DNA of 64,000 nt from a virus (Duplodnaviria; Caudoviricetes). The notes under the pieces were generated by a model that was not told the DNA's origin, did not search any database, and saw only the letters and a program-made list of their open reading frames with translations. The DNA lies in IMG/VR virus record IMGVR_UViG_3300033075_001437, positions 32,001 to 96,000 of that record, one strand, 5' to 3'. Position 1 is the stretch's first letter; each line of letters opens with the position of its first letter. This document shows, one piece after another, positions 31,900 to 58,221 of the stretch. A program made the position numbers and the translations under genes.

Positions 31900-32441
31900 A
31901 TTTTTGACACTATAGAAGCTAATGCTGAATTAATCTCTACAGTGGTGTTATTACATTCGACATACTTCTTAATTTGTTCTAATTCTATCTTTTTGAGCTT
32001 TATCTTATTAATTTTACGATTTAATTCATGCAATTTATTATTTATATAATCCATAAGACCAACCTTGTTAACATATGTGTCATATTCATATGAACGCTCA
32101 TTATCAGGCCCCCAAGAATTGCATATTTTTGTAGAACATGCTCGGTTATCATCGTCGTCAACTATATCATGAATAATATTGTCAGACTCATATTTCTTAA
32201 TATGTTCAACATCAAGACCAACCATAAAATCTTCAGTATAACTTGCATAAAAACTGCAATTATCACCATGCACATATAAACCGTCGCATGTAAATCTAAT
32301 ATAACCAAATTTATAATTATTAGTAAGTCTTATACAATTATCCTTAACCAAACACTTAATATTATTTTCAGATAAAAACCCCGCAACAGCATGAATAATA
32401 TCTTTCCAAATTTCAGATTGCGCCATTACTTGGTCATGCAT
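31896..32441 (-). CDS. hypothetical protein
   Basis: 181-aa ORF. Confidence 0.55.
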   Translation of the reverse strand: MHDQVMAQSEIWKDIIHAVAGFLSENNIKCLVKDNCIRLTNNYKFGYIRFTCDGLYVHGDNCSFYASYTEDFMVGLDVEHIKKYESDNIIHDIVDDDDNRACSTKICNSWGPDNERSYEYDTYVNKVGLMDYINNKLHELNRKINKIKLKKIELEQIKKYVECNNTTVEINSALASIVSKI

Positions 32442-44397: not shown

Positions 44398-46047
44398 TTA
44401 CGACCACTTTTTAATATATCTAAAGTTGCCAGCATCCCAAATTCTTCTATAGCCATTGTTAAACATATTGACCGATTCAGTCTCGTTTTGGTCAAAAACA
44501 TCTAAAACATTTGGCAATTTATGCTTTTGAAACTTATGCCTAGAATAAACCTTTTGTTTTTTAAAATACATATAATTAGGACTAGTAATACCATCTAAAA
44601 CAAACCCAACCTTTTCATATGAATTTCCGTTAAAGTACCTTCTATTCGCATATGAAATCATAGATTTAGGCTTATATTTATCAACAAAATAATCCATCAA
44701 TTTAGATAATCCGCCAACAACAACAGTGTTTAAACGATTGCAATACCTCATCATCTCATATTGATACTTGTTATGCTTAGATATTGTTAATAACGCCACT
44801 AGCTCACCATCATAAGACAAACCAAATGAATATGGCGCACTTCTATATCCTTGTATATGATTGTTATTTAAAAAGCTTACTACCTGTGTAACAGATGGTG
44901 TTATAATATAGCATTTTCTAGCATAAATCCTGTTGGCTTTCCTAAAACAACTTGAAAGTATAGATTTAACAATGTCTCTTTTATCGTTCCATTCATGCTC
45001 GAAAATCTGTAACAATCTGATATTGTTGTTATGACATAAATCATGTTTATAAGAACACATGTTGATTTGATCTAATGTTTCTTTTTCACAATATGAATGC
45101 CAATAATCACCATGACACTCTATGCCGACATTTCCTGCTAAAAAATCTATTTCCTTAACTAAAGACCTATCATACAATTTAATTTCATCATCAGCTATAG
45201 TTAAAAGAAAATCATAAACAGATTTTTCAAATAAATTCATTTTACATTTTTTACATTTAGCCCCAACTATGTGAGATTTTGGGCAAACTGTAAAAACGCC
45301 ATGTTCTGGACAAATAACATCAACCGTATGCTCGCATCCAGTGTATGATTCTTTAATATAAGAATACTTACCACCATATATTTCATTTGCTTTTAAAACA
45401 AAATTGTCAAACTTATAAGCACTTTCCGCCGCACATTTTGAACATCCTTTACCAGCTAAATGCGCATATCTAGATTGTATAAATTCGCCGTGTTTGTCGC
45501 ATATTACTTTAACAATCGTTTTTTTGTGATTTATCGAATTACTATACCCACCAATGTCAACATATTGATATTTATTATCGTGTATAGTATTAGCTTGTTT
45601 TACGAAATCGTCAAAACCTGTTTTTAAATTATTGTTTCTAGCAATTACAGCACATTTTGGGCAGCCAGACTTATTAGAGATATGATTAGCTGGTATCGTG
45701 TTAAATTCACCATGCTCTTTGCATATAACGATCACTTTTTTACGCATACCATTATATATTGTCTTGTCATAATTATATTTATAACTATGCACGATATTAG
45801 CTTCGTTTATAAAATCAGATAGTGTTTTTAACTGTTCCCTCGACCTGCAAGCATTCTTTTCACAACCGCATTTATTGCAACCTTGTTTTCTTACGCCTGC
45901 GTGTAATGATGGCAATTGCCAAAACGAACCATGTTTTAGGCAAATTATTTCTACTTTTGTTTTACTATCTATATAATTCGACTTGCTATAGTCATATTTA
46001 TCGTTATGTTTTAATATTGCTTTCTTTATAAACTCTTGTGTGTTCAT
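44398..46047 (-). mobile_element. free-standing homing endonuclease (Hef-like: Zn repeats + Vsr-type nuclease + GNAT-like C-terminus)
   Basis: Four FI.KA..H..KY.Y....Y..V.IIC..HG.F..H....GC.KC repeats, EIDF..GIECHGDYWHS, IYARK..VVGGLSKL..SYANRR; overlaps the end of DnaE piece 4. Confidence 0.8.
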
Positions 46048-50436: not shown

Positions 50437-50988
50437 TCATTGCCCTATCTTTTTCAAAACTTCCTTAGGTTTTACCACTTCTCTTAGTGTATATTGCCGA
50501 GCATAATAAGGAATCTGGGAAGCTATAATCCGAGAATACTCAGATCGAGAAACTGAATAAATCCATTCTTTATCTGAAAGAGCATTCGCTTCTTCAATCT
50601 CTTGGCGAAAACGCTGCACAAAACCATGAGATTCATAACCACGATGAATACGATCTAGGTTCTCAGGATCATTCTTATAAATTTCAACCACCCAGGCGGG
50701 ACACTTATGCGAGCGAATTAAGTGTGTACCAAGTAGAACATTCTCCCCTAAAATTGTAATAGATTTTCTGGCTTCATCATGTTCTTCACTGGTAAAATCT
50801 CCGGCTTCTAATTGCCACTGTTCTTTTGGGATTCTTTCATTAGCAAAGGGTATCAAAACTCTTTCCTGAGAGAATAATGGTATCACTAATAAGTTAAAAA
50901 GCATAATAAAAAAGAGATAAAACTGTATGTTACAACGATTCATTCGCATTAACTTTCTCCCTACAGTGCAATTCATTAAAAATATCAA
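50437..50988 (-). CDS. hypothetical protein with signal-peptide-like N-terminus
   Basis: FYLFFIMLFNLLVIPLFSQE; start uncertain. Confidence 0.5.
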   Translation of the reverse strand: MIFLMNCTVGRKLMRMNRCNIQFYLFFIMLFNLLVIPLFSQERVLIPFANERIPKEQWQLEAGDFTSEEHDEARKSITILGENVLLGTHLIRSHKCPAWVVEIYKNDPENLDRIHRGYESHGFVQRFRQEIEEANALSDKEWIYSVSRSEYSRIIASQIPYYARQYTLREVVKPKEVLKKIGQ

Positions 50989-52832
50989 TTAGACTTGTAT
51001 ACAAATCTAAAATTACCACAATCAAACAATAACCTAAAACCATTTAACAACATTATTTCTCTTTCAGACAAATCTTTATCGTAAAACAATATAGATTTTT
51101 TATCAAAAAGGCTTTTTAATTTATGCTTTTGAAATGTTTGCCTTGAATAAATCTTATTATTCTTAACATAACAATACCCTGGTCTAGTCACACCATCAAA
51201 TTTCATACCAAGTTTGTTATAAACACCGCCAGTCGCATACCTAGCATCGGCATATGTTATAACCTCATTCGGCTTAATCTTATTAATAAATTCTTTAAAC
51301 ATTTTAGACGCACCACCAACTATATTATAGCCAATTTTGGTTGCTAATCTGTCAATTTTAAACTTACCATTTCTACCTATAAACGACATAACTGAAAATA
51401 CATCATGTCCATCAGTTAAAGCGACACCAAAATTGCACGAACCAGATCCTTTTAAATGGTTCTCACTTAAAAATTTCCTGATAACTTTAGAGTCTGCAGT
51501 AATGACCTTCAATTTCCTAGCATAAATCGTTTCACTTAACATTAAAGCATTTTTGATCATACTTTTGACAATTTCGAATTTATTTTTAATTTCATAATCT
51601 GTAAACTGAAACAGTCTTAAATTATTATTCTCGCATAATTTAAGCTTATTAATATGTCTATTAGAATCAATATCTGATAAATTATCGTATGAATGCCAAT
51701 ATAAGCCATTTACCTCTATACCAATTTTATGTTTATCGATATATGTGTCTATCTCATATGGGTTAATAATGCTCCTGTCGTTTACAATATAATCTATATT
51801 TAATTGGTCTAACAAATTATTTATAGCAACATGAGCATTTGAAACATTGCATGATTTGCAACCGTGGCCTAAAAAATGATATCTTGGTATCTGATAGAAT
51901 TCACCATGCGATGGGCAGATTATTTTAACTTTAGTTTCAACATTTTCATAATCTACAAACGAATAATCGTATTTATCGCCGTGAATAGTTTTAGATTTTA
52001 GTATAAATTCTTCAAAGCTCAACTTATAATTATCTTTATATCTATCTATGGCACACTCCTTACATGCTTTTCCTTTTGAAATGTTGCACCACCTACCTGA
52101 TTTCAAACCATGTTTCTTACATTCATATGTTAACACACCTTTTTCATACTTTAAATATTTAAAACTATCGCCAAACAATATTTCAAATTGTTTTTTTCTA
52201 GAGATTTCTTCTACATTTCTTCTATCGTTTAATGTGCGTTCTTTAATTATAGGTTTAAATTTTTCATTTTTACAACCTTGACATCCAACAAGGCCGCGTA
52301 GATGCCTGCGAAAATGAACAGAAAATTTACCATGTTTTGAACAAACAACATCAATATTACTATCCCTATTGTTGTAGACGGCATTGCTATAATTATAATT
52401 TGGATACATGTTATTTAAAGTTGATTGAAAATGCTCTGGTATTTTACCACCATTACATATAGGACATTGCCATTTATTTAATATAAGATTAGCTGTAGAT
52501 ACAAATTTGCCATGTTTAGAACATACAAAAGTAAATTTAAGATTCTCAAGAAAGCTTTTTGGTTCAATTAAATCATGTTCTGGATACAGCCGTTTAAATT
52601 CTTTTTTAAAACTATCAAATTTATTAGCCATATCAACTTTAATAGTTTGGATACTACATAGTTTACATTCGCTTTTATTCTTAACATGAGATTGTGGCGT
52701 TTGCCAAAACGAACCATGTTTTGGACAAATTATTTCTACTTTTGAACAATTGTTAACATATGTGACTTTAGAATAATCATATTTATCGCCATGTATTAGC
52801 TTGGCATTTACTATAAATTGCTCTGTATTCAT
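50985..52832 (-). mobile_element. free-standing homing endonuclease (Hef-like), paralog of 44398..46047
   Basis: IHGDKYDYS..IICPKHG.F repeats, EIDTY..IGIEVNGLYWHS, IYARK..IVGGASKM..TYADAR; directly downstream of DnaE piece 3. Confidence 0.8.
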
Positions 52833-52868
52833 ACACTTATTTTTGCACTTATAATCGATATTTCGGGT

Positions 52869-54020
52869 CTAGAACTTCTTCAAAACATCTTGAACATCAA
52901 CTTCTTGTCCATTGTATAATATCTTATCGCCATGATTAAGTAAAAGTATCTCCCCATTCTTTAATTTGACAGCATACTTTTTAACAATTGGACCAAACGA
53001 TATACCTCTATTTTCTTTTATCAATCTGCAAGCACTGTATATATATTCTAATGTCTTCAAACCCAATATATCGAGCTTGCAATAGCCAAGCTTGCTTAAG
53101 TGTGTGTTGCGCCCTTCTGGCCACATTGTTGACCATGGATTTTTATTGCTACTTCTGGTTAAAGGAACATTGCCGAACAGTGGTTTATTAGCTATAACTA
53201 TAGCCCCAGCATGAACACCAGCGTTCCTAACCTTGCCGATCATTTTAATAGCATATTCAAATAAATCTGGATGATTATCCTTGAATGCTTGCAATTGCTG
53301 ATACTCAAATAAAGCCCTTCCTATCGTTATATTGTCATATTCATCAGATCCACATCTAGGGCATTTTAATTCAGCATGTACAAATTTGCATTCTTTCTCT
53401 TCTTCACTATCAACTTCTTTATACTTCCCTTTGCAAGTTGACTGCCCAAACTCTCTTAAATCATCAACATCTTCAGGTAAAGTTGTTGTTAACGCATGAA
53501 TTTCAGATTGATGTACCTTACCAATCGCTCTAGCAACATCCAATAATGCTGATTTGAATTTATATGTCTGCCAAGTTCCGACATTGCAAACATTGCCGTA
53601 CTCATCATTAATATCAATATTAAATCTTGTAGCCGCATATTTTTTAATATCATCACGTGCTTCTGGTAAACAATCTATATCTATGTCAGGCATGTCCATA
53701 TCTTTAGTAAAATCAGATGGTAAGTTGCCATATTGATCTAAAAATTTATGAACCTGCGTATATGATGCATTATTCAACAATGGTTCTGTTCTTGTAGCTA
53801 TTGGGTCTATATCAACCATACCAAGAAGCCACGGCAGAACCAACATACTTGGATTACTAGAAAACTTCCTGTTTTCTATATATAAATTAATCCAATATGT
53901 TTCATATCCTTGTTTTTCTATTTCTGAGAATTCGAATTTAAGTCTATCTATATAAACTTGATCTTTATTTTTACTATTTAAATTATTTAAAGCTATTTCT
54001 TTTAATTCTTCCCAAATCAT
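52869..54020 (-). CDS. dnaE: DnaE piece 3: catalytic palm/thumb
   Basis: MPDIDIDC, SALLDVAR, GVHAGAIVI, KLDILGLKTL; Zn-finger insertion (C..CPRC). Confidence 0.92.
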   Translation of the reverse strand: MIWEELKEIALNNLNSKNKDQVYIDRLKFEFSEIEKQGYETYWINLYIENRKFSSNPSMLVLPWLLGMVDIDPIATRTEPLLNNASYTQVHKFLDQYGNLPSDFTKDMDMPDIDIDCLPEARDDIKKYAATRFNIDINDEYGNVCNVGTWQTYKFKSALLDVARAIGKVHQSEIHALTTTLPEDVDDLREFGQSTCKGKYKEVDSEEEKECKFVHAELKCPRCGSDEYDNITIGRALFEYQQLQAFKDNHPDLFEYAIKMIGKVRNAGVHAGAIVIANKPLFGNVPLTRSSNKNPWSTMWPEGRNTHLSKLGYCKLDILGLKTLEYIYSACRLIKENRGISFGPIVKKYAVKLKNGEILLLNHGDKILYNGQEVDVQDVLKKF

Positions 54021-54430
54021 TTGCCGCCTGCACCTGGATGTATAGCGTTCATATGGTTAGTCAGCCCAAATTGTTTTTTAAACTTTTTATTACATATTGG
54101 GCAAGTAATGTCTTTAGTTGATTCTTCTATTAGCGACTGTGCCGGTTCTTGATCCAATACTGGCGCAGTTTGAATTTGCGGCACTTGCGGCGTAATTTTA
54201 TCTTGTTTTACCGGTTTACTTTGATGATTTATATAATTTTCTTTCAATTTCCAAGGCTGCATAGCGTATGTAAAGCCATCTTTCTCATATGTATCAGCTT
54301 GATAAACAAGAGCTTTTTTAGATTTGGCAATATCTGTTGCGACATCATTCTTCAAAACTGTAGCTAAAACCTTAGCAGGTGGGTGTACGACAATATACGC
54401 TACTTTATTCATTACAAGTACCACTGTCAA
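54017..54430 (-). CDS. C2H2 zinc-finger protein
   Basis: CPICNKKFKKQFGLTNHMNAIH. Confidence 0.7.
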   Translation of the reverse strand: MTVVLVMNKVAYIVVHPPAKVLATVLKNDVATDIAKSKKALVYQADTYEKDGFTYAMQPWKLKENYINHQSKPVKQDKITPQVPQIQTAPVLDQEPAQSLIEESTKDITCPICNKKFKKQFGLTNHMNAIHPGAGGK

Positions 54431-54839
54431 AAGTGTCTTTGCCTAGTATGACTTTATCGCAAATACTTTCTAAGAACGTTTGTTTATATTGGTTAATATA
54501 AACATGATCAAACTTCATAAGTAATAAACGAATATTCCGTAATAACAACTTATTCTTATTAGATTCATACTTCCAAGTATTACCATCTTTAATAAAAAAA
54601 TTTATTACATCAGCGTTGCAATATAAATACAAAGTATTACAATAAACATTATTATAATTATATGAGGTCAAAGCAGATAGAATCGATTGCAATTTTACAA
54701 ATTCAGCAGTTTTATTATATAGCTGATAAGCATAATATCTATGATAATTGCAATATACAGATTTAATAGCTACAGTTGATACAGTGTTATCTACCTTTTC
54801 ATAACAATATAATTTACAATTTATTGCCATGGACGTCAC
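54405..54839 (-). CDS. RNase HI-like fold, degenerate
   Basis: NKTAEF..L..AL and YCNADVINF..WKY..LL..IR.LL.KFDHVYI follow the RNase HI pattern without the catalytic Asp residues. Confidence 0.4.
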   Translation of the reverse strand: MTSMAINCKLYCYEKVDNTVSTVAIKSVYCNYHRYYAYQLYNKTAEFVKLQSILSALTSYNYNNVYCNTLYLYCNADVINFFIKDGNTWKYESNKNKLLLRNIRLLLMKFDHVYINQYKQTFLESICDKVILGKDTFDSGTCNE

Positions 54840-55236
54840 ATATTGTAGGATATTCTGATTTTGTAGCTGCCGCTAATGCGTTTAATAATTTAGATATTAT
54901 TCTTAATAAATTATATTTCGCCTGTATCTTATCTATTTTCCTTAATTTAATTATAGCTATCAATAATTCGTCATTTAAATTCATGATTTCTTCGGTAAGA
55001 CCTTTCGCCGCATTAATAGATGCTACATGTTTCGACACATGATTTGCAACTGATTCGATAATTGCATATGATAAGCCTATTAATTCTCTCGTCGGATCAT
55101 TATTAATAATCAATGAATCTATAATATCTATAGATTTAATAAGATATGCGGCCAATTCCGAAGTTGGGCCATTATATATTAGCAAGTATATTCTAATTGA
55201 ATGTTTAAATTCTGAATTTGCATCTATTTTATTCAT
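54814..55236 (-). CDS. hypothetical helical protein
   Basis: 140-aa ORF coupled to DnaE piece 2. Confidence 0.55.
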   Translation of the reverse strand: MNKIDANSEFKHSIRIYLLIYNGPTSELAAYLIKSIDIIDSLIINNDPTRELIGLSYAIIESVANHVSKHVASINAAKGLTEEIMNLNDELLIAIIKLRKIDKIQAKYNLLRIISKLLNALAAATKSEYPTICDVHGNKL

Positions 55237-55556
55237 TATTTTTCCGGCATTGTCACTTTTAAAAGGTATCCGCCACGGCTGCTTGACAAGAATCTGTCAA
55301 AACTCAAATCCCATTTCATTGGGTCATAATTTGAAATTCCTAATAAATAACATACTAAACTTCCGCCAGCCGAATTAGAACTGAACACTCCATTTAATTG
55401 ATATGTGTTAGTGGCGCTAACTTGTAAATCATATACTTTACCGGTGTATTTCTTCTTTGTTATCTTGTTTATTCTTATTCTCTTTATAGTATTTTTTGTA
55501 ACCAATTTCTGCAATTCTTTTATGTTTTTGATCTGTGAAGGTAATAGTTGATTCAT
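55236..55556 (-). CDS. dnaE: DnaE piece 2: split-intein C-half plus 45-aa extein
   Basis: KKYTGKVYDLQV..YQLNGVFSSN|SAGGSLVCYLLGISNYDPMKWDLSFDRFL. Confidence 0.9.
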   Translation of the reverse strand: MNQLLPSQIKNIKELQKLVTKNTIKRIRINKITKKKYTGKVYDLQVSATNTYQLNGVFSSNSAGGSLVCYLLGISNYDPMKWDLSFDRFLSSSRGGYLLKVTMPEK

Positions 55557-55921
55557 TGAAAATAACCCTAATTTGCCGCCACATGTGACTTCCGCCTGTT
55601 CCTCTTAAAATACCTTCGGAAAGCAATCTCTCCGTTGTATATAATACATAATTATCAGCAACGCCAGTTTCTATGATATATCTTTCAGCGGCTGCCTGTT
55701 TTTCGCCAACTTTGTTTTGGTAAAATCCTTTTATTTCTATTATCGATTTAACATTTTTATCATCTATGACACAGAAATCTGGATGATAAAAATGTTTATC
55801 ATATGCTATACTAAAATCGCACCTTCTGATGGTTTTATAATTGTTTCTAACGTGCCAAATATATATGTTGAATATTTCCGCACTTATTGCAATTATATGT
55901 TATTTTGGTTTTTTTCGACAT
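55438..55921 (-). pseudogene. eroded PD-(D/E)XK (TnsA-N-like) homing endonuclease
   Basis: ATG at 55921 (MSKKTKITYNCNKCG..) stops at 55847; shifted frame 55899-55438 reads CDFSIAYDKHFYHPDFCVI..IIEIKGFY with no ATG upstream of these motifs. Confidence 0.75.
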
Positions 55922-57497
55922 TAGCGATTAAATCCGAGATACCACCGATGATTTCATCAGTATCTTTGATTTCATATGCTTTCAGTAAACATACAATATT
56001 ATCTCTTATGACATATAGCTTATGGTCAGAAGTTAATTCCAAAACGCATCCGTCAACTTCAATAACAAACAACTCTTCAGATACATCATAAATGAATTTA
56101 TTTTCAACTACTTGTTTATCACCGAATCCGTCAATTATCTCATCGCCTATAGATATGTCAGATATTTTTTGGCAACTGTTAACGGACACATTAACTAAAG
56201 CGTCTGGTGTAGTGCAGCCACGGGGGGCAAATGGGAAGCCCCTATTTTTGCCATAATCTATTAAATCTTTAGTTATTAAAAAATAACTAGCAAAACCTTT
56301 TTCAATAAATCTGCTTAATTCTAATTTAGCCTGATCTAAATAAGTTACCTCTTTGCCATCAACAACAAATTTCCTATCACACTTATCTAAACCAAGCTCC
56401 TTCAATCTATTCTTAACAATTGTTATAAGCTTCTTATCAGCATCTTCAATACTCGGTATCTTAGGCGATAAATCGAATTTAACATTGTCGCACTTGTCAG
56501 CTATTTCAATAGAGTTATCACATGCCTCATGAAACCTTCTATCATCTATACCATCAGAATATGTATTATTCTTGAATCTTGTCCATAATTCAGCACGTGT
56601 TTTAAAATATTGTTCATCGCTATTAACATGAAACAAATCTGGCGAATCAACAGTTGTTTCTTGATCTATTGCCATCATGATTTTTTGGATCATTGAATCT
56701 TCTCTTTTCATATAATGACAATCATTAGTTATAACTGGTTTAATTTTAAATTTATCAGCTATCATATTTAATATTTTAAAAACTCTGTCATCGCCATCAA
56801 CCCCAGGCATTTGAAGTTCAATATAATAATCATCGCCGAATATTTGTTTATATGATTTTATAATATTCACAGCGGAATTAAGACATTCACTGTCTGTGCG
56901 TTCCTTTAAAATATTGCCTTCTCTGTCCTTTATTTGCTTAGTTCTTAACTCGTGTGATACTGGGCCATTTAAACAACCAGATAAAACTATTAATCCTTCT
57001 TTATATTTAAACAATTTTTCAGTCCAAGACCTGTTATATTTTGCTCTACCCATTCCAAATAAACCATCTTTATAAGCTTCTGTAGTTAACTTTATGAGGT
57101 TTTCAACTCCTTGTCTGTTTTTACATAAGACAGTAAGATGTCTATTTCTAGTTATTTTAAAATAATCTTCAATATTTTGTTTTTTCCATTCTTCAGATCT
57201 CCATTTTATCCCTTTAGATTCTAACTCTTGTCTTATCGGCTCATGGTCATTCAGATAAATTTCGCTACCAGCGATATATTTAAGACCGCTTTTCTTGCAC
57301 TCAAAAAAACCATCAGGCACTGATGCCATGTGGCCATGTTCAGTTAGAGCCAATGCACGGTAGCCTCTTTTCTTGCTTTCAGAGGCATATTGCTGGACAT
57401 AAGCAACACCGTCTAACATTGAAGCAATACTGTGATTGTGTAAATGTATTATCTCTGAATCACCAACATAATCCTCGCAAGTATAAATCTTATTCAT
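55893..57497 (-). CDS. dnaE: DnaE piece 1: PHP domain + palm start + split-intein N-half (107 aa)
   Basis: HLHNHS..LDG, ALTEHG, GSE, SGCLNG, TNDCHY, GFASYFLI, PRG|CTTPDA..LTSDHKL. Confidence 0.93.
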   Translation of the reverse strand: MNKIYTCEDYVGDSEIIHLHNHSIASMLDGVAYVQQYASESKKRGYRALALTEHGHMASVPDGFFECKKSGLKYIAGSEIYLNDHEPIRQELESKGIKWRSEEWKKQNIEDYFKITRNRHLTVLCKNRQGVENLIKLTTEAYKDGLFGMGRAKYNRSWTEKLFKYKEGLIVLSGCLNGPVSHELRTKQIKDREGNILKERTDSECLNSAVNIIKSYKQIFGDDYYIELQMPGVDGDDRVFKILNMIADKFKIKPVITNDCHYMKREDSMIQKIMMAIDQETTVDSPDLFHVNSDEQYFKTRAELWTRFKNNTYSDGIDDRRFHEACDNSIEIADKCDNVKFDLSPKIPSIEDADKKLITIVKNRLKELGLDKCDRKFVVDGKEVTYLDQAKLELSRFIEKGFASYFLITKDLIDYGKNRGFPFAPRGCTTPDALVNVSVNSCQKISDISIGDEIIDGFGDKQVVENKFIYDVSEELFVIEVDGCVLELTSDHKLYVIRDNIVCLLKAYEIKDTDEIIGGISDLIANVEKNQNNI

Positions 57498-58221
57498 GAT
57501 AACATTCAAATCATTAGGATCATTAGGTAGACTAGGAAATCAAATTTTCCAATACGCTATGATCAAAAATTTAGCTACAACAAATAAATATGAATACGGA
57601 ATACCAAAAAATTGTGATCTAAGGAATTGTTTTAAAATAGATTGTAAAGAAAGCGATAATATTCATACAGATTATAAATATGAAGAAGAATTCAAAAATT
57701 TCTCGACATACGACAAAAACATATTCAATATCAAAGACAATACTGACATTAGCGGATACTTTCAATCATATAAATATATAGAAAGTGATTTTAAATTAGA
57801 ATTTAAACAAGATTATTTTTTTCAATATAACAAAGATTCCGTTGGTGTTCACATTAGAAGAACTGATTATGTCGATAATAAGTTTAATAAAGAACAACCA
57901 ATAGAATATTATAATAAAGCAATGGATTTATTCGGTAATAATTATAATTTTTATATAATATCAGATGATATAAACTGGTGCAAACAAAACTTTAAAGGCG
58001 ACAATATTTTATTTTCAAATAATATATCAAGCTATGAAGATTTATACTGTTACTCCAAATGCGACAATCAAATAATTTCAGCTAGCTCATTTAGTTGGTG
58101 GGGAGCATGGTTTAATGCTAAAGCAGATAAAACAATAATATATCCATATTATTGGCTACACGACAACTTCATGAATATGGTTAAAGACTTAATCCCACCA
58201 ACTTGGCTACCAATTAAATAA
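57496..58221 (+). CDS. alpha-1,2-fucosyltransferase (GT11)
   Basis: GRLGNQIFQYA, GYFQS, HIRRTDY, SDDINWCK, SSFSWWGAW. Confidence 0.9.
   Translation: MITFKSLGSLGRLGNQIFQYAMIKNLATTNKYEYGIPKNCDLRNCFKIDCKESDNIHTDYKYEEEFKNFSTYDKNIFNIKDNTDISGYFQSYKYIESDFKLEFKQDYFFQYNKDSVGVHIRRTDYVDNKFNKEQPIEYYNKAMDLFGNNYNFYIISDDINWCKQNFKGDNILFSNNISSYEDLYCYSKCDNQIISASSFSWWGAWFNAKADKTIIYPYYWLHDNFMNMVKDLIPPTWLPIK

Follow-up and report, generated by a model that had tools for sequence, protein, structure and literature searches.

Organization of the DnaE Genes

The window analyzed here is a 64,000-nucleotide stretch of phage DNA (Caudoviricetes), positions 32,001 to 96,000 of the 106.9-kb IMG/VR virus record IMGVR_UViG_3300033075_001437 (~30% complete by estimate, ~31% G+C). 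It encodes a C-family DNA polymerase, DnaE, in five pieces (P1 to P5), and the subject of this study is the break between P2 and P3, where the palm domain of the polymerase is divided between two genes and its first segment occurs twice. On the minus strand the order is P1, P2, three small genes (X1, X2, and X3), P3, an endonuclease-like open reading frame (ORF) and, further downstream, P4 and P5. The P1-P2 and P4-P5 junctions are of the split-intein type. We refer to the protein spliced from P1 and P2 as A, to P3 continued by P4 and P5 as B, and to the palm-start copies in A and B as A_C and B_N. The parts of A and B on either side of the break are as follows, in window coordinates.

55893-57509, minus strand: P1, first part of A, with the PHP domain, the palm start, and an N-intein half
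Within 55893-57509, minus strand: PHP domain of P1 (Pfam PF02811, E 2.9e-35)
56226-56447, minus strand: first half of A_C in P1, reading EDADKKL..VTYLDQAKLELSRFIEKGFASYFLI..PRG
55236-55556, minus strand: P2, with a C-intein half (residues 1-61, ending SSN) and then the second half of A_C
55239-55373, minus strand: extein part of P2, with SAGGSLV (the GS motif), the FDRFL and SSSR arginines, then GGYLLKVTMPEK and the stop codon
52869-54020, minus strand: P3, start of B, reading MIWEELKEIA..YIDRLKFEFSEIEKQG..SSNPSMLVLPWLLGMVDIDPI..
53700-54020, minus strand: B_N, the second palm-start copy (P3 residues 1-107), with no GS loop and no conserved arginines
52869-53699, minus strand: rest of P3, with the catalytic palm, the thumb with a Cys/His insertion, and a C-terminal tail

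The P1 extein comprises residues 1-431, ending ..APRG, and is followed by a 107-amino acid N-terminal split-intein half that starts CTTPD at 56216. In P2 the Pfam Intein_splicing match covers residues 16-61, and the sequence after the C-intein reads SAGGSLVCYLLGISNYDPM..FDRFLSSSRGGYLLKVTMPEK up to the stop codon. A therefore ends ..FDRFLSSSRGGYLLKVTMPEK (..TMPEK), at the MP that in single-chain DnaE precedes the catalytic DxD (the PDIDID strand). P3 does not continue where A stops. Instead, residues 1 to ~107 repeat the same palm segment, and the catalytic motifs come after that copy, with MPDIDID (MPDIDIDC) first at residue 110 and KLDILG at residue 315. On the Pfam profile PF07733, P1 matches positions 14-68, P2 positions 20-98, and P3 positions 9-260, so that roughly positions 9-98 are covered twice.

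No Hint splicing motifs were found at the C terminus of A or the N terminus of B, and P3 has no intein match in Pfam. Hint blocks of the kind that flank the break in a gene fractured by a split intein are absent from P2-P3, the intein match in P2 being that of the P1-P2 junction. A preliminary description of this DNA, made from the sequence alone, had placed the end of P1-2 just before PDID, called the break intein-free, and held that P3 first repeats the palm segment. The position of the A stop codon, the Pfam and sequence results at the break, and the double coverage of PF07733 agree with it on each of these points, as do the profile and structural comparisons of the repeat that are given below.

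The P3 N Terminus Is Homologous to the DnaE Palm Start

A profile of 70 B N termini was compared with a profile of 75 bacterial DnaE palm starts. The hhalign profile-profile comparison gave a probability of 94.7% and an E of 5.8e-8 over 71 collinear columns, and the alignment holds one 11-residue deletion, which takes out the GPGRGSAAGSL loop. The C-terminal piece of A matched the same bacterial profile with an E of 1.6e-32. Searches with single sequences were weaker. B_N alone (107 amino acids) matched PF07733 over the first helices only, with an E of 0.019; the B_N of locus L004 (loci of relatives are numbered with L, records with G) gave an E of 0.18 against Pfam; and the same fragment from five other relatives gave no Pfam match. 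When a hidden Markov model (HMM) of the B family was compared with PDB sequences, its first 110 profile positions were left unaligned to DnaE. In a phmmer search P3 matched residues 459-517 and 556-642 of Taq DnaE.

The AlphaFold2 (AF2) model of P3 had a predicted local distance difference test score (pLDDT) of >90 over residues 1-100 (about 1-105). Residues 1-105 of the model superposed on residues 827-966 of PolC with a Z of 7.2-7.5 and a root mean square deviation (rmsd) of 2.5-2.6 Å over 83-84 residues (VIA), and residues 1-267 span residues 287-508 of E. coli alpha. Global superposition of P3 by Foldseek was poor (rmsd 17-24 Å), the domains floating relative to one another, and for this reason the comparison relies on local VIA ranges alone. 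For an intein-free A (locus L004) the model had a pLDDT of 88.6; it covers PolC 334-966 and E. coli alpha 1-396 with Z values of 30-35, and the model of gene A also superposes on Taq 5-458 (Z 33-35). Both A and P3 therefore contain a segment equivalent to E. coli alpha ~287-396. The preliminary description had named a lack of profile similarity between the P3 N terminus and the palm start as a refutation of its reading; the similarity is present, and the reading is not refuted. Alignment of both copies to DnaE structures, which it had proposed as a check, agrees with it. We conclude that the N terminus of P3 is homologous to the DnaE palm start.

Conservation and Selection in the Two Copies

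In 66 A sequences the GS motif and arginine residues R424, G425, S426, G429, S430, R452 (of FDRFL), and R458 were all invariant, as were the PHP metal ligands H, H, D, H, H, E, H, C, D, and H. The spliced A of the window holds every one of these residues and ligands, so that the PHP metal ligands of P1-2 are indeed intact, as they had appeared to be at first reading. On the B side, D112, D114, D116, K315, and D317 of P3 were invariant in 70 sequences. Within B_N, the same 70 sequences share nine invariant residues (R26, F29, E30, E33, K36, Q37, L60, P73, and P101) with many others nearly so, and the conserved pattern reads Y..RL.FE..EI.KQG, F.SNPN.L.LPWLL, DPI. In every relative B_N is without the GS motif or loop and without fixed arginines.

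Mean pairwise identity was 48% for B_N, 53% for the thumb, 75-80% for the catalytic palm of B, 78% for the palm piece of A, and 68% for the PHP domain. The ratio of nonsynonymous to synonymous substitution rates (dN/dS) was 0.056-0.063 for B_N, 0.011-0.028 for the palm core, and 0-0.012 for the palm piece of A; these values come from the three locus pairs with unsaturated dS (L010, L014, and L015), dS being saturated in most locus pairs. By these measures the palm piece of A evolves as an active-site element does. The dN/dS of B_N and its invariant residues indicate a functional, translated module and not a decaying relic. The preliminary description was right about the anatomy: the break has no intein, and a palm segment is duplicated with its motifs degenerate. 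Its term for the P3 copy, "eroded", does not hold, since a dN/dS of ~0.06 denotes purifying selection and the GS loop has been lost by a clean deletion; nor can the HKFL of P3 be taken as a remnant of FERFL, because the HKFL position is variable among relatives.

All A proteins of the clade share an insertion of the form RGG-[YFNKR]-[ML]-L-x-[VTAIL]-x-M (P2 residues ~92-103, window 55250-55282, minus strand; GGYMLNV in the profile alignment). It is specific to the clade; it follows the second arginine and precedes the terminal MP, a place where cellular DnaE has nothing. It may form a strand for pairing with B.

A further cluster of conserved residues, C196, C211, H215, C220, and C223, lies in the thumb within P3 residues 196-223 (window 53352-53435, minus strand) and is invariant in 70 homologues. 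The cluster resembles a zinc-ribbon-like insertion that cellular DnaE lacks.

Distribution of the Split among Relatives

In all 12 IMG/VR relatives with 43-55% identity to P3 the order was A, then small genes, then B. Half of these 12 are intein-free, with A a single ORF of 466-482 amino acids and B a single ORF of 901-920 amino acids. The P2-P3 break also occurs in these intein-free relatives and is therefore older than the intein invasions. A wider scan covered 64 IMG/VR loci. All of the ~50 loci with at least 32% identity to P3 were split and had the N-terminal copy in B, and in none of these ~50 clade members does the catalytic core lie on one polypeptide. The other 14 loci, at 20-26% identity, encode an ordinary single-chain DnaE in which the A palm piece abuts the DxD strand and B_N is absent.

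A lay upstream of B in 45 of the 47 loci with full flanks. Of the two remaining records, G001 has A 10 kb upstream of B, and in G002 (the record of L042) A, at C1:143808-145271 on the plus strand, and B, near 87-88 kb on the minus strand, are ~56 kb apart on opposite strands. These two records indicate that adjacency of the genes is not required.

Searches of larger collections gave the same picture. A metagenome protein database contained 285 B-type proteins, none of which had a PHP domain, and 738 A-type proteins; the B-type relatives carry PF17657 and PF14579. No fused A-B protein was present among proteins longer than 826 amino acids, where the long A-like ones are intein-bearing and the next matches are bacterial DnaE proteins of at most 34% identity. 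P3 had 462 matches at E < 1e-10 among 1.84 billion cluster representatives. For the best 150 of the 462, most place the palm motifs as in a PHP-less B-type protein, with DxD ~85-110 residues from the N terminus where it was matched. A tblastn search of GenBank phages gave no close cultured relative, the best match being 28-30% identical. On the evidence of these sequences the split is ancient and is shared by hundreds of metagenomic relatives, uncultured large phages that form a very large clade.

On a deeper branch B_N was encoded by a separate ORF of 131-152 amino acids (L060:5574-5999, L062:6917-7375, and L063:4864-5259), with a tail of ~50 amino acids that resembles an N-intein without Cys1. 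The DxD-bearing ORF begins 150-1000 nucleotides beyond it, so that DnaE is there in at least three pieces.

Inteins and Genes between A and B

Three small genes separate A from B in the window.

54814-55236, minus strand: X1, small conserved gene, with homologues at the same place in relatives
54405-54839, minus strand: X2, small conserved gene, positional counterpart of an RNase H-fold protein of relatives
54017-54430, minus strand: X3, small protein with a C-terminal C2H2 zinc finger (Pfam zf-C2H2, E 3e-5)

The five genes from P2 to P3 are tightly packed, with stop and start codons overlapping as TAATG (P2 stop and X1 start) and ATGA (X3 stop and P3 start). X1 had no match in Pfam, PHROGs, or Atlas. 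X3 is kept at the same position in many relatives, where it also has a zf-C2H2 match. X2 is the gene most constantly present between A and B and the sole intervening gene in the shortest gaps. Its counterpart in L005 (L005:8712-9176) was assigned to RNase H clusters with a score of 0.93 by Atlas features, and with TM values of 0.77-0.84 by structure. The position of the first catalytic Asp is not conserved across relatives of this protein, and the X2-type RNase H-like protein may therefore be an inactive subunit. An RNase H fold also occurs in E. coli epsilon, a protein that binds to the PHP domain.

The intein in A interrupts the GS motif at PRG/S (window 55374-56225, minus strand, PRG/SAGG). 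The C-intein half in the window ends SSN, without the penultimate His. About six relatives (L033, L035, L037, L039, L051, and L059) have an insertion at the same site of A, contiguous in some and split in others. Inteins favor functionally critical sites, and their repeated insertion at PRG/S, like the tight packing of the five genes, fits the two-chain reading proposed below.

The window also contains two large paralogous ORFs with repeated Cys-rich modules, one of 615 amino acids (50985-52832, minus strand) and one of 549 amino acids (44398-46047, minus strand). Homologues adjoin DnaE breaks in the relatives L009, L012, and L013. The two ORFs probably encode free-standing homing endonucleases.

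A Proposed Two-chain Polymerase

We propose that this DnaE is an obligate two-subunit enzyme with a deoxynucleoside triphosphate (dNTP) site assembled from both chains, and put the probability of this reading at about 0.6. A, trans-spliced from P1 and P2, would carry an intact PHP nuclease domain and would supply the nucleotide-binding half of the Pol-beta-like palm, namely strand beta1, the GS loop, the next helix, and the FDRFL..R arginines. B would supply the metal-binding half (DxD and K.D) together with the thumb, fingers, and DNA-binding domains. B_N, as a paralogue of the A palm piece, would most likely be a scaffold or docking module that keeps A on B. The data establish the anatomy of the genes, the homology of both copies, the patterns of conservation and selection, the lack of fused forms, and the physical separability of A and B; complementation of the active site in trans and the docking role of B_N are inferred.

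The DnaE structures of Lamers and of Bailey from 2006 and the ternary complex 3E0D reportedly have the dNTP triphosphate bound by the GS loop and by the arginines of FERFL and PER. In DnaE the DxD and K.D motifs bind metals. Throughout the clade the GS/Arg set is confined to A and the DxD/K.D set to B, and a palm with the GS motif, DxD, and the third Asp (of K.D) is obtained only when A and P3 are taken together. In the AF2 model of P3, B_N and the thumb are confident, and the pLDDT of the palm sheet falls below 50 at residues 110-120, 141-147, 268-287, and 298-323; the last ~20 residues of the A model (L004) are also of low confidence. Both features of the models would fit missing partners.

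Several points weigh against the proposed enzyme and its origin. The low pLDDT of the P3 palm sheet may just reflect the missing fingers, which lie in P4-5. The conservation of the A motifs could serve another role related to nucleotides or pyrophosphate. If B_N occupies the canonical palm-start position, the access of the A copy to the active site would be left unexplained. Direct similarity between A_C and B_N was marginal (hhalign E 0.005-0.006), and the two copies are accordingly not claimed as each other's closest relatives; a single duplication in place is read from the layout and not from a tree.

It is also conceivable that B is self-sufficient and binds dNTP without a GS loop, A then being a separate PHP 3'-5' exonuclease or pyrophosphatase in which the palm piece stabilizes the PHP domain or acts as a tether. 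All PHP metal ligands of A are intact, the model of A folds confidently by itself to ~residue 445, and B starts exactly at the canonical PHP/palm boundary with the full set of palm-start helices, as such a division of labor would have it. The B_N of all relatives, however, has lost the GS loop by deletion and lacks conserved arginines, and the GS/Arg residues of A are invariant in a palm piece that is more conserved than the PHP domain, which would be needless for a mere tether. We therefore consider a self-sufficient B unlikely. The preliminary description had offered the composite active site and the separable PHP proofreading subunit as alternatives; a proofreading role of A is in fact compatible with a composite site, and the two need not exclude each other.

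The remaining explanations concern the P3 N terminus itself and the integrity of the chains. That its likeness to a palm start is chance, or the convergence of a helical leader with no duplication, might be argued from the weak or absent single-sequence Pfam matches, from the B-family HMM that left B_N unaligned to DnaE in the PDB, and from a Z of 7.5 that is middling for a helical piece. A profile-profile E of 5.8e-8 over 71 collinear columns, structural matches specifically to C-family polymerases at the segment directly before DxD, and a helix order in B_N collinear with that of A_C make this very unlikely. Decay of B_N into a functionless relic of the fission would account for the loss of its catalytic motifs and for a mean identity of 48%, below that of the palm core; it is extremely unlikely given the dN/dS of 0.056-0.063, the nine residues invariant in 70 sequences, and the retention of B_N in all split relatives down to ~32% identity, in some as a separate ORF. 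Finally, the mature enzyme might be a single chain because A and B become linked at the RNA or protein level, whether through an intron, RNA trans-splicing, ribosomal bypass, or cryptic protein splicing. In many relatives A stops directly after the M of ..V.M, exactly where single-chain DnaE goes on with PDIDID, as joining would predict. An Rfam search nevertheless found no intron or other RNA family in 52500-57700, no Hint motifs occur at the break, three conserved ORFs lie between A and B, B_N is translated and under selection, and one relative has 56 kb between A and B, which lie on opposite strands; of the explanations considered here we find joining the hardest to credit.

The proposed two-chain enzyme would have arisen by gene fission through a partial duplication (or from two copies), followed by complementary loss, and the fission would have occurred once, at the base of the clade. 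Partial duplication with complementary loss fits the layout of A and B, on which this proposal is based. In some relatives the tail of A still reads ..DMPDPIS or ..SMPDPVN before the stop codon, and B has D.DMPDIDLDC. Tails with MPDP indicate that the duplicated stretch extended from the PHP/palm boundary at least as far as MPD.

Taken as a whole, the picture of a C-family polymerase that is assembled in trans and held together by a paralogous palm pair, one member catalytic and the other a GS-less mimic, that arose by partial duplication and complementary loss, and that became fixed across hundreds of uncultured large phages, with the RNase H-fold protein as a possible further subunit, is put forward tentatively, at slightly less than even confidence. 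If it is true, a Pol-beta-like palm can be complemented in trans, the phages offer a natural system for the communication between a PHP proofreader and a polymerase site, and the clade records a rare, datable case of fission by duplication and complementary degeneration inside a single domain. The arrangement, which is not unique to the window, makes a trans-assembled polymerase active site directly testable. For annotation of large-phage genomes, the ORFs of ~470 and ~900 amino acids are neither fragments nor pseudogenes and should be neither merged nor discarded. New split inteins at defined sites are likewise plentiful in this clade.

Comparison with Known Systems

To our knowledge, every C-family replicase studied so far has its palm on one chain. 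The phage proteins taken together have the domain order of single-chain bacterial DnaE with an active PHP proofreader (Mycobacterium tuberculosis DnaE1, 5LEW and 7PU7; Thermus aquaticus, 2HPI and 3E0D) and of the E. coli enzyme (2HNH), namely PHP, palm, thumb, fingers, HhH, and OB, and, as expected of the family, the PHP domain is N-terminal and has its metal ligands. A matched residues 6-417 of M. tuberculosis DnaE1 with an E of 3.5e-46 and a Z of 34.9, and the B family matched residues 460-947 of the T. aquaticus enzyme. Identity to cellular DnaE is only ~33%. Compared with a single-chain DnaE, the phage uses two genes that separate the GS/Arg half of the palm from its DxD half, places two or three small genes between them, and adds to B a GS-less copy of the first half.

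A full-text literature search found no description of a full-length split with a pseudo-copy, which is not proof of absence, and surveys of C-family polymerases do not mention the split. Genes fractured by split inteins and accompanied by free-standing homing endonucleases have been described, among them three environmental loci of DnaE that contain split inteins (Dassa et al. 2009, NAR 37:2560, PMC2677866). The P1-P2 and P4-P5 junctions of the window are of this type; the P2-P3 break differs in having neither intein halves nor an endonuclease gene.

Among published cases the nearest is the split minimal Pol III alpha found in group 2.2 jumbo phages. There the N-terminal, NTP-binding part and the C-terminal part, which binds Mg and DNA, come from separate genes, and the two proteins are predicted to reconstitute one enzyme (Iyer et al. 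2021, Viruses 13:63, PMC7824862). Compared by description, the two systems share the placement of the NTP- and Mg-binding palm halves on separate proteins, with a boundary of the same kind. The version of Iyer et al. lacks PHP and the remaining Pol III domains, and its description mentions no duplicated segment. The phages studied here do not have this minimal architecture, as A has a PHP domain and the B-type relatives have PF17657 and PF14579; their clade keeps the full DnaE set and has B_N in addition.

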